Shown: positions 55,993 through 56,425 of the stretch, in pieces
How the letters are laid out: each line of letters opens with the position of its first letter
Position numbering within the stretch: position 1 is the first letter of the stretch
DNA from: Escherichia coli
GTDB taxonomy: Bacteria > Pseudomonadota > Gammaproteobacteria > Enterobacterales > Enterobacteriaceae
Assembly: GCF_045037415.1 (NCBI RefSeq)
Contig: NZ_CP173438.1
Length of the DNA: 64,000 nt
Direction: 5' to 3' (one strand)
Notes under the pieces: generated by a model
Databases searched by the model: none
What the model was told of the DNA's origin: nothing
The model's input: the letters and a program-made list of their open reading frames with translations, nothing else
Position numbers and translations under genes: made by a program

Positions 55993-56010
55993 GTTATGTT
56001 ATAACATAAC
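55993..56010 (+). promoter_or_regulatory. Zur box (zinc uptake regulator operator) overlapping the ykgM promoter
   Basis: Perfect AT-rich palindrome GTTATGTTATAACATAAC ~12 bp upstream of ykgM start, matching the Zur consensus core (TGTTATAACA). Confidence 0.8.
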
Positions 56011-56021
56011 AGGTAAAAATG

Positions 56022-56285
56022 ATGAAACCCAATATCCATCCTGAGTATCGTACTGTGGTGTTCCACGACACCAGCGTTGATGAGTACTTTAAAATCGGCT
56101 CGACTATCAAAACAGACCGTGAGATTGAGCTGGATGGCGTAACGTATCCGTACGTAACAATTGATGTCTCTTCGAAATCGCACCCGTTCTATACAGGGAA
56201 GCTGAGAACAGTGGCATCAGAAGGAAATGTTGCACGGTTCACCCAACGTTTTGGTCGTTTTGTTAGCACGAAAAAGGGGGCATGA
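56022..56285 (+). CDS. ykgM: Ribosomal protein L31 type B (zinc-independent paralog)
   Basis: 87 aa ([18 protein letters not shown]...) lacking the CxxC zinc ribbon; Zur box upstream. Confidence 0.95.
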
Positions 56286-56425
56286 TGAAAGTCCTTAACT
56301 CTCTGCGTACCGCAAAAGAACGCCATCCAGACTGTCAGATTGTGAAGCGAAAAGGACGGCTGTATGTGATTTGTAAATCTAATCCACGTTTTAAGGCCGT
56401 TCAGGGTCGTAAGAAAAAACGTTGA
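56285..56425 (+). CDS. ykgO: Ribosomal protein L36 type B (zinc-independent paralog)
   Basis: 46 aa [49 protein letters not shown]; start overlaps ykgM stop (TGATG); translated by hand. Confidence 0.9.

Follow-up and report, generated by a model that had tools for sequence, protein, structure and literature searches.

A perfect 18-bp palindrome as the Zur operator of the Escherichia coli ykgM-ykgO operon

Within a stretch of 64,000 nucleotides of Escherichia coli DNA (the window), an exact palindrome of 18 bp, GTTATGTTATAACATAAC, lies just upstream of ykgM and ykgO, two small genes for paralogs of ribosomal proteins L31 and L36. The question raised by this locus is whether the palindrome serves as an operator for the zinc-dependent repressor Zur, or whether it is symmetrical by chance, is read by some other regulator, or acts at the level of RNA. 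We are nearly certain that the locus is the E. coli ykgM-ykgO operon together with its Zur operator, a switch that is already known and is among the best-characterised metalloregulatory switches in E. coli. An initial annotation of this DNA had proposed a Zur box that controls a zinc-starvation backup for L31 and L36, and that proposal is supported by the Zur motifs, by the Cys-minus paralogs and by the literature on strain K-12. The features on which the argument draws are collected in Table 1.

Table 1. Features of the ykgM-ykgO operon and its control region, in window coordinates
Feature	Position	Strand	Basis and remarks
Predicted -35, TTGAAA	55960-55965	+	Consensus scan, 9/12 matches, 17-nt spacer
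Predicted -10, TATCTT	55983-55988	+	Consensus scan; ends 4 nt before the Zur box
Zur box	55993-56010	.	Perfect 18-bp palindrome GTTATGTTATAACATAAC; 20-bp two-dimer motif at 55992-56011
Putative Shine-Dalgarno-like AGGT, weak	56011-56014	+	Read from the sequence; 7 nt before the ykgM ATG
ykgM, type B (Cys-minus) bL31B, 87 aa	56022-56285	+	Pfam Ribosomal_L31; RefSeq; alternative ATG 56019
Shine-Dalgarno AAGGGGG for ykgO, strong	56274-56280	+	Lies within the 3' end of ykgM; 4 nt ahead of ATG 56285
ykgO, type B bL36B, 46 aa	56285-56425	+	Pfam Ribosomal_L36; RefSeq; alternative ATG 56282
Two stem-loops after ykgO	56454-56472 and 56474-56512, then TTTT (to 56513)	+	RNA fold

The palindrome has a single occurrence in the window and reads without a mismatch across all 18 bp. 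Its end lies 11 nt before the ykgM start codon, relative to which the palindrome runs from -29 to -12, and in this respect the initial annotation, which had placed an exact 18-bp palindrome just upstream of ykgM, was correct. It is the sole perfect 9+9 palindrome in the window, and no tenth pair extends its arms. On its own, however, the palindromy of GTTATGTTATAACATAAC is weak evidence for an operator, because a perfect 18-bp palindrome was present in 27% of 200 Markov-1 simulated 64-kb windows, with a mean of 0.295 per sequence. What lies far beyond chance at this site is its resemblance to Zur operators and its conservation across species. We note separately that the second-longest perfect palindrome of the window, GATTATTAATAATC (7+7, at 19419-19432), falls within an ORF of 310 aa (19000-19932).

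Resemblance to Zur operators can be assessed with patterns of 18 and 20 bp that were derived from structure and drawn partly from the ykgM operator itself. The 18-bp skeleton RxxxYRxxRYxxYRxxxY is matched exactly at 55993. Taken by itself this R/Y skeleton has 223 matches in the window against about 250 expected, and we dropped it as a discriminator because the count is about equal to expectation. The 20-bp pattern TGWNAYRWTATAWYRTNWCA differs from the site at 55992-56011 in one position, and nowhere else in the window does it fit with two mismatches or fewer (0.12 expected). The classical 23-bp consensus for γ-proteobacterial Zur, GAAATGTTATANTATAACATTTC (GAAATGTTATA-N-TATAACATTTC), was not matched within three mismatches because it is odd-centred and the ykgM site is even-centred (9+9); one half of the consensus aligns with the site at a time. 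We do not regard the missing 23-bp match as a defining failure for membership among Zur boxes, and Gilston 2014 replaces the 23-bp consensus with a structure-based motif that the ykgM site satisfies (PMC4219657).

A comparison that leaves the ykgM site out of its own test is provided by a matrix built only from the K-12 operators upstream of znuA-znuC, zinT and pliG, each entered in both orientations. All three operators can be aligned on a TATAACA core in a single 20-bp register. With this matrix, a scan that the initial annotation had suggested as a check, the ykgM site (55992-56011) scores 24.4 bits and tops the window by far, the next-best window site reaching 11.2 bits; the three training sites score 25.5-27.8 bits on their own matrix. 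The best site per simulated 64 kb scored 12.5 +/- 2.2 bits, the highest of 200 was 19.1 bits, and none of the 200 simulations (0/200) reached 24.4 bits. GTTATGTTATAACATAAC is closer to independently established Zur operators than background DNA is.

The site is also conserved well outside E. coli. A scan of one genome per species found 80 loci with relatives of YkgM at 67-95% identity, ranging from Escherichia, Klebsiella, Enterobacter, Salmonella, Serratia and Photorhabdus to Vibrio and Pseudoalteromonas, and the quantitative analyses of conservation cover 79 loci from other genomes plus the window (80 in all). The best box match ends 10-14 nt upstream of the ykgM start codon in 74 of these 80 loci. 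With the box as anchor, the 18 bp carry 1.6 bits of information per position and GTTATGTTATAAC carries 1.79 bits, as against 0.31 bits for the 60 bp upstream of the box and 0.35 bits immediately downstream of it; the conserved core of the box is TGTTATAACA. When divergent E. coli strains are aligned with K-12 and E. albertii, the bases adjoining the box vary but those of the box itself do not. Exact symmetry, by contrast, is a minority state across species: among the 80 other loci, five have the perfect 18/18 palindrome, namely those of E. albertii, Samsonia, a divergent E. coli and two Brenneria, and most species have one or two mismatches, located in the outer right arm of the box. That exact symmetry is kept in Escherichia and a few other genera may relate to the order of derepression within the Zur regulon.

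Among complete E. coli genomes the ykgM promoter segment is present in 5057 of 5426, and a megablast search with this segment found no match in the other 369 (about 7%). The 1.4 kb surrounding the Zur box and ykgMO is 100% identical to several sequenced E. coli strains. Plasmid-borne ykgMO genes were considered as mobile copies and dropped; the matches were K-12 F-prime plasmids or megabase-sized records.

The arrangement of the box relative to the promoter bears on how Zur might act here. The consensus scan that yields the hexamers in Table 1 found two promoter-like sites, fewer than the 3.8 in shuffled sequence. The GTGTTG of the -35 region is invariant in the alignment of E. coli and E. albertii. 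Across the 80 loci, the best promoter combines a TTG-type -35 with a 17-nt spacer in 71, and in 65 there are 3-4 nt between the end of the best -10 hexamer and the box; small peaks of conservation mark the TTG in the -35 and the TA...T in the -10. Because the -10 hexamer ends 3-4 nt before the box, the ykgMO start site would be expected inside the left arm, at about 55994-55997; no mapped transcription start site for E. coli ykgM was found in the searchable literature. With such a start site, a Zur footprint of some 30 bp would extend from the end of the -10 across the start site into the early leader. The initial annotation had the box overlapping the promoter; on the predicted promoter the overlap would be with the start site and not with the hexamers themselves, the -10 ending 4 nt earlier. 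At the place of the weak AGGT, the consensus of the 80 aligned loci is purine-rich (GAGG/AGG).

The two genes that follow are annotated by RefSeq as ykgM and ykgO, at these same coordinates, in a 100%-identical E. coli genome, and are annotated also in K-12. The A that ends the ykgM stop codon TGA (56283-56285) is also the first base of the ykgO ATG (56285-56287), giving the TGATG overlap that the annotation had described, provided that the ATG at 56285 is the one used. Both ykgM (56019-56027) and ykgO (56282-56290) open with the same nine bases, ATGATGAAA, which hold two adjacent in-frame ATGs, and E. albertii has a single ATG in each gene. RefSeq places the starts at the downstream ATGs, and the resulting N-termini (MKPNIHP... 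and MKVLNS...) align to the L31 and L36 profiles from residue 1. Translation might conceivably begin instead at the alternative ATGs, 56019 and 56282, and the overlap with a start at 56282 would be ATGA, as in E. albertii. The AAGGGGG Shine-Dalgarno sequence, together with the TGATG overlap, suggests that translation of ykgO is coupled to that of ykgM. Of 79 loci, 17 have a one-base overlap between the L31B stop and the L36B start and 1 has an overlap of four bases, and in 53 the start comes 0-5 nt after the stop; tight linkage of the two genes is general among the loci, but overlap is not.

Both products can be assigned with confidence to their ribosomal protein families. YkgM matches the full profile of PF01197 (Ribosomal_L31; E = 8.9e-25, 87.1 bits, cutoff 27), and YkgO matches PF00444 (Ribosomal_L36; E = 4.7e-19, 68.6 bits, cutoff 26.1). 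In PDB entry 6i7v, an E. coli ribosome structure whose chain names were given by the depositors, chain D7 ('50S ribosomal protein L31 type B') is identical to YkgM residues 1-68 and chain C5 ('L36 2') to YkgO residues 1-45; the best PDB matches of YkgM are all named 'L31 type B' or bL31B. Incorporation of bL31B into ribosomes has been reported (PMC9825181). The zinc ligands C16, C18, C37 and C40 of K-12 RpmE align with T, V, S and S in YkgM, which has no Cys in its 87 residues and is lengthened by 12 inserted residues, as is typical of the longer B form. The comparison of YkgO with K-12 RpmJ is more mixed: C11 becomes H14 and H33 becomes F36, whereas C14 and C27 are kept as C17 and C30, and YkgO also has three residues inserted ahead of the first ligand and is extended at its C terminus by a basic stretch. 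Compared with RpmJ, YkgO has an incomplete CCCH ligand set and is 'C-minus' in the usual classification, yet it is not cysteine-free. The initial annotation had called both paralogs zinc-free. This description suits YkgM, which lacks Cys entirely, and suits YkgO in part, in that two ligands are lost and two Cys are kept; since YkgO retains these two Cys and gains a His at a ligand position, 'zinc-free' is not a property of L36B that sequence alone could prove.

Beyond ykgO, RNA folding predicts the two stem-loops and the short T-run listed in Table 1. The segment 56415-56530 folds at -38.2 kcal/mol (z = -6.4), and none of 200 shuffles (0/200) folds as well. These stem-loops were not called by a simple terminator scan because of their AT-rich stem and short T-run. 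They are probably the intrinsic terminator of ykgMO, and a terminator is drawn downstream of ykgO by Aseev 2020 (PMC7297116). On the opposite strand, ykgL (56460-56685, -) carries two 1-bp deletions relative to K-12 and is frameshifted in the window, as RefSeq flags also in the identical strain. The K-12 ykgL reading frame crosses the ykgMO terminator hairpins, which casts doubt on ykgL as a real gene. RNA-seq under calprotectin treatment found ykgL co-induced with ykgM and ykgO (PMC12279244), which may represent read-through or an antisense signal. The same co-induction would fit the idea that the double hairpin (56454-56512) gives rise to a stable 3'-derived RNA, or to read-through that is antisense to ykgL and proceeds toward ecpR. 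We consider this idea improbable; if true, it would tie a further output to zinc starvation.

Our account of how the switch works draws on published work with K-12, the results of which should carry over to the window because the K-12 box is identical; this applies to Zur binding, to zinc- and zur-dependent repression, to ribosome incorporation and to repression of rpmE. When zinc is sufficient, Zn-loaded Zur would bind the 18-bp palindrome, presumably as two dimers on opposite faces of the DNA that protect about 30 bp, by analogy with the structure on the znuABC operator. Zur bound over the predicted start site would keep RNA polymerase from binding or opening the promoter and leave the operon silent, a geometry of promoter occlusion that we infer for ykgM. 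When cytosolic zinc drops, Zur would lose its sensing zinc and leave the DNA, and the promoter would fire several-hundred- to thousand-fold. The product would be a single short bicistronic mRNA, on which the TGATG and the internal Shine-Dalgarno sequence would couple translation of ykgO to that of ykgM. bL31B and bL36B would then replace the zinc-binding bL31A and bL36A in ribosomes, such that translation could continue and ribosome-bound zinc be freed, and bL31B would also repress rpmE through the rpmE 5' UTR.

Several elements of this scheme have direct precedent. The L31p operator has the lowest Kd-app of four Zur operators (0.025e-18 M^2) and is the most palindromic of the four on the 18-bp inverted repeat, the Zur footprint is about 30 bp, and ykgM mRNA is subject to 560-fold repression by Zur (PMC4219657). 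A chromosomal ykgM-lacZ fusion is silent in the wild type and goes up ~1000-fold in zur::kan or with TPEN (PMC7297116). Derepression under TPEN or in a zur mutant, the experimental check that the initial annotation had put forward, has thus already been published for K-12 (PMC7297116, PMC4219657). In E. coli Nissle, calprotectin induces ykgMO more than 1000-fold (PMC12279244), and L31p both represses L31 and is needed if Zur and zinc are to affect L31 (PMC9825181). The locus matters for ribosome remodelling and for the mobilisation of zinc under host-imposed zinc starvation, and the ykgM promoter is in use as a biosensor of calprotectin and inflammation (PMC12279244).

Other explanations for the palindrome have to be weighed against this one. 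All boxes of the Fur family are inverted repeats, AT-rich and similar in length, and their cross-recognition is discussed in the field; GTTATGTTATAACATAAC might accordingly be the operator of another member of the family, for example Fur, or of an unrelated regulator. The 19-bp Fur consensus GATAATGATAATCATTATC, however, has no match at 55993-56010 within three mismatches, the three other Zur operators have the TATAACA core and the 20-bp register in common with the ykgM site, and deletion of zur alone is enough for the ~1000-fold derepression (PMC7297116), so that we give this explanation almost no credence. Still harder to credit is a chance palindrome in AT-rich intergenic DNA that has no regulatory role, with ykgMO controlled from elsewhere. 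Palindromes of this length do arise in more than a quarter of Markov-1 simulations, and the R/Y skeleton is about as frequent in the window as expected. A site of this kind, though, would not be expected to outscore all 200 null sequences on a Zur matrix that excludes it, to keep its position and sequence in 80 loci (79 and the window) whose flanks are not kept, or to be invariant within E. coli and E. albertii, and binding and repression have been published for the identical site in K-12 (PMC4219657, PMC7297116).

It could also be argued that the palindrome matters chiefly as RNA, forming a hairpin in the 5' leader that governs ykgM translation or stability, with Zur binding secondary. If transcribed in full, the palindrome would fold into a 7-bp hairpin just before the ribosome-binding site, and the 58-nt leader folds at -9.7 kcal/mol (z = -2.4). 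Against this, the stem is short and made up almost entirely of A-U and G-U pairs, and a transcript that begins at the predicted start, in the left arm, would have its hairpin truncated. The pattern of variation across species points the same way: box position 3 is A in every one of the 80 loci, yet its partner, position 14, has A in place of T in 29 of them, and the outer right arm drifts as the left arm stays fixed. Variation of this kind is non-compensatory, which fits recognition of DNA by a protein and not base-pairing. Searches of the leader, the intergenic regions and the 3' end against Rfam found no relevant family at the gathering threshold; the one hit below the threshold, to folP RNA, scored 20 bits where the cutoff is 99 and was set aside as noise. 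We judge a primary role for the hairpin very improbable, and we take the palindrome to be a Zur operator.

Several observations concern the rest of the window. The only match to GATAATGATAATCATTATC within three mismatches (ATTAATGATAATCACTATC; 0.01 expected) lies at 20750-20768 (-), inside an ORF of 364 aa (19974-21068). At 65-141 and 159-235 (-) there are tandem matches to Rfam naRNA4 (CssrE, a REP-type nucleoid-associated RNA) with 68.3 and 70.2 bits, both above the gathering threshold. ykgR (55556-55657, +), a gene for a small membrane protein of 33 aa, is on the same strand as ykgM and 364 bp upstream of it; the matrix scan found no Zur-like site near ykgR, and its product has no Pfam family. 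Upstream of ykgR are genes for an NADH-dependent flavin oxidoreductase (53941-55083), an alpha/beta hydrolase and two LysR regulators, and this region also holds an ORF of 1415 aa (43961-48208, -). The K-12 counterpart of 43961-55083 contains only the ykgP and eaeH pseudogenes and IS3, and K-12 looks like a degraded state of this region. On the other side of the operon, ecpR (matA; 57461-58051, +) is intact in the window, with 196 aa; in strain E07, which is 100% identical over the ykgM region, ecpR is split by an IS1 insertion.

The closest known system is the ykgM-ykgO operon of K-12 (b0296-b4506), which is the same locus, with an identical 18-bp box, the same predicted -35 and -10 hexamers, the same RefSeq gene names and the shared gene order ykgR-ykgM-ykgO-ykgL-ecpR. 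Panina 2003, Graham 2009 and Gilston 2014 (PMC4219657) are the studies cited for this operon and its PL31p Zur operator. Divergent E. coli strains have the same YkgM accession, WP_000803998.1. K-12 differs from the window by a few substitutions in the flanks of the box, including the base 2 nt before it (C in the window, T in K-12), in addition to the differences in ykgL and in the region upstream of ykgR, where the oxidoreductase, hydrolase and LysR block of the window stands against pseudogenes and IS3. Within the Zur regulon, the operators of znuA/znuC, zinT and pliG (TGTGATATTATAACATTTCA, TGTTACAATATAACATTACA and TGTTATATTATAACAGTTCA) have the same 20-bp register and TATAACA core as that of ykgM and likewise lie near the start of the regulated gene, but they differ in symmetry, with 10-12 of 18 positions palindromic in their best 18-bp frames as compared with 18/18 for ykgM. 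Zur binds ykgM and zinT at least 100-fold more tightly than it does znuC and pliG, and represses them far more strongly (PMC4219657).

In Yersinia pestis, ykgM-rpmJ2 has the same two-gene, Zur-regulated architecture, with a box that runs from -34 to -16 relative to the start codon, as compared with -29 to -12 in the window (PMC2706843). Unlike the ykgM box of the window, that of Y. pestis, GATGTTACATTATAACATA, is odd-centred and an imperfect repeat, and footprinting with DNase I, along with primer extension, puts the Zur site over the -10 element (PMC2706843). Repression of Y. pestis ykgM is modest, at 4.7-fold with a lacZ fusion (PMC2706843). More distantly, the box of Bacillus subtilis Zur is of a 9-1-9 type (PMC4219657). 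The C-minus operons of actinobacteria and the B. subtilis gene ytiA (rpmEB) differ from ykgM-ykgO in their sets of paralogs (S14, L33 and others) and in operon composition, and share with it the logic by which Zur represses a Cys-minus paralog of L31. This paralog displaces the zinc-binding form of L31 under zinc starvation, a point made also in work on E. coli and Y. pestis (PMC9825181, PMC2706843).
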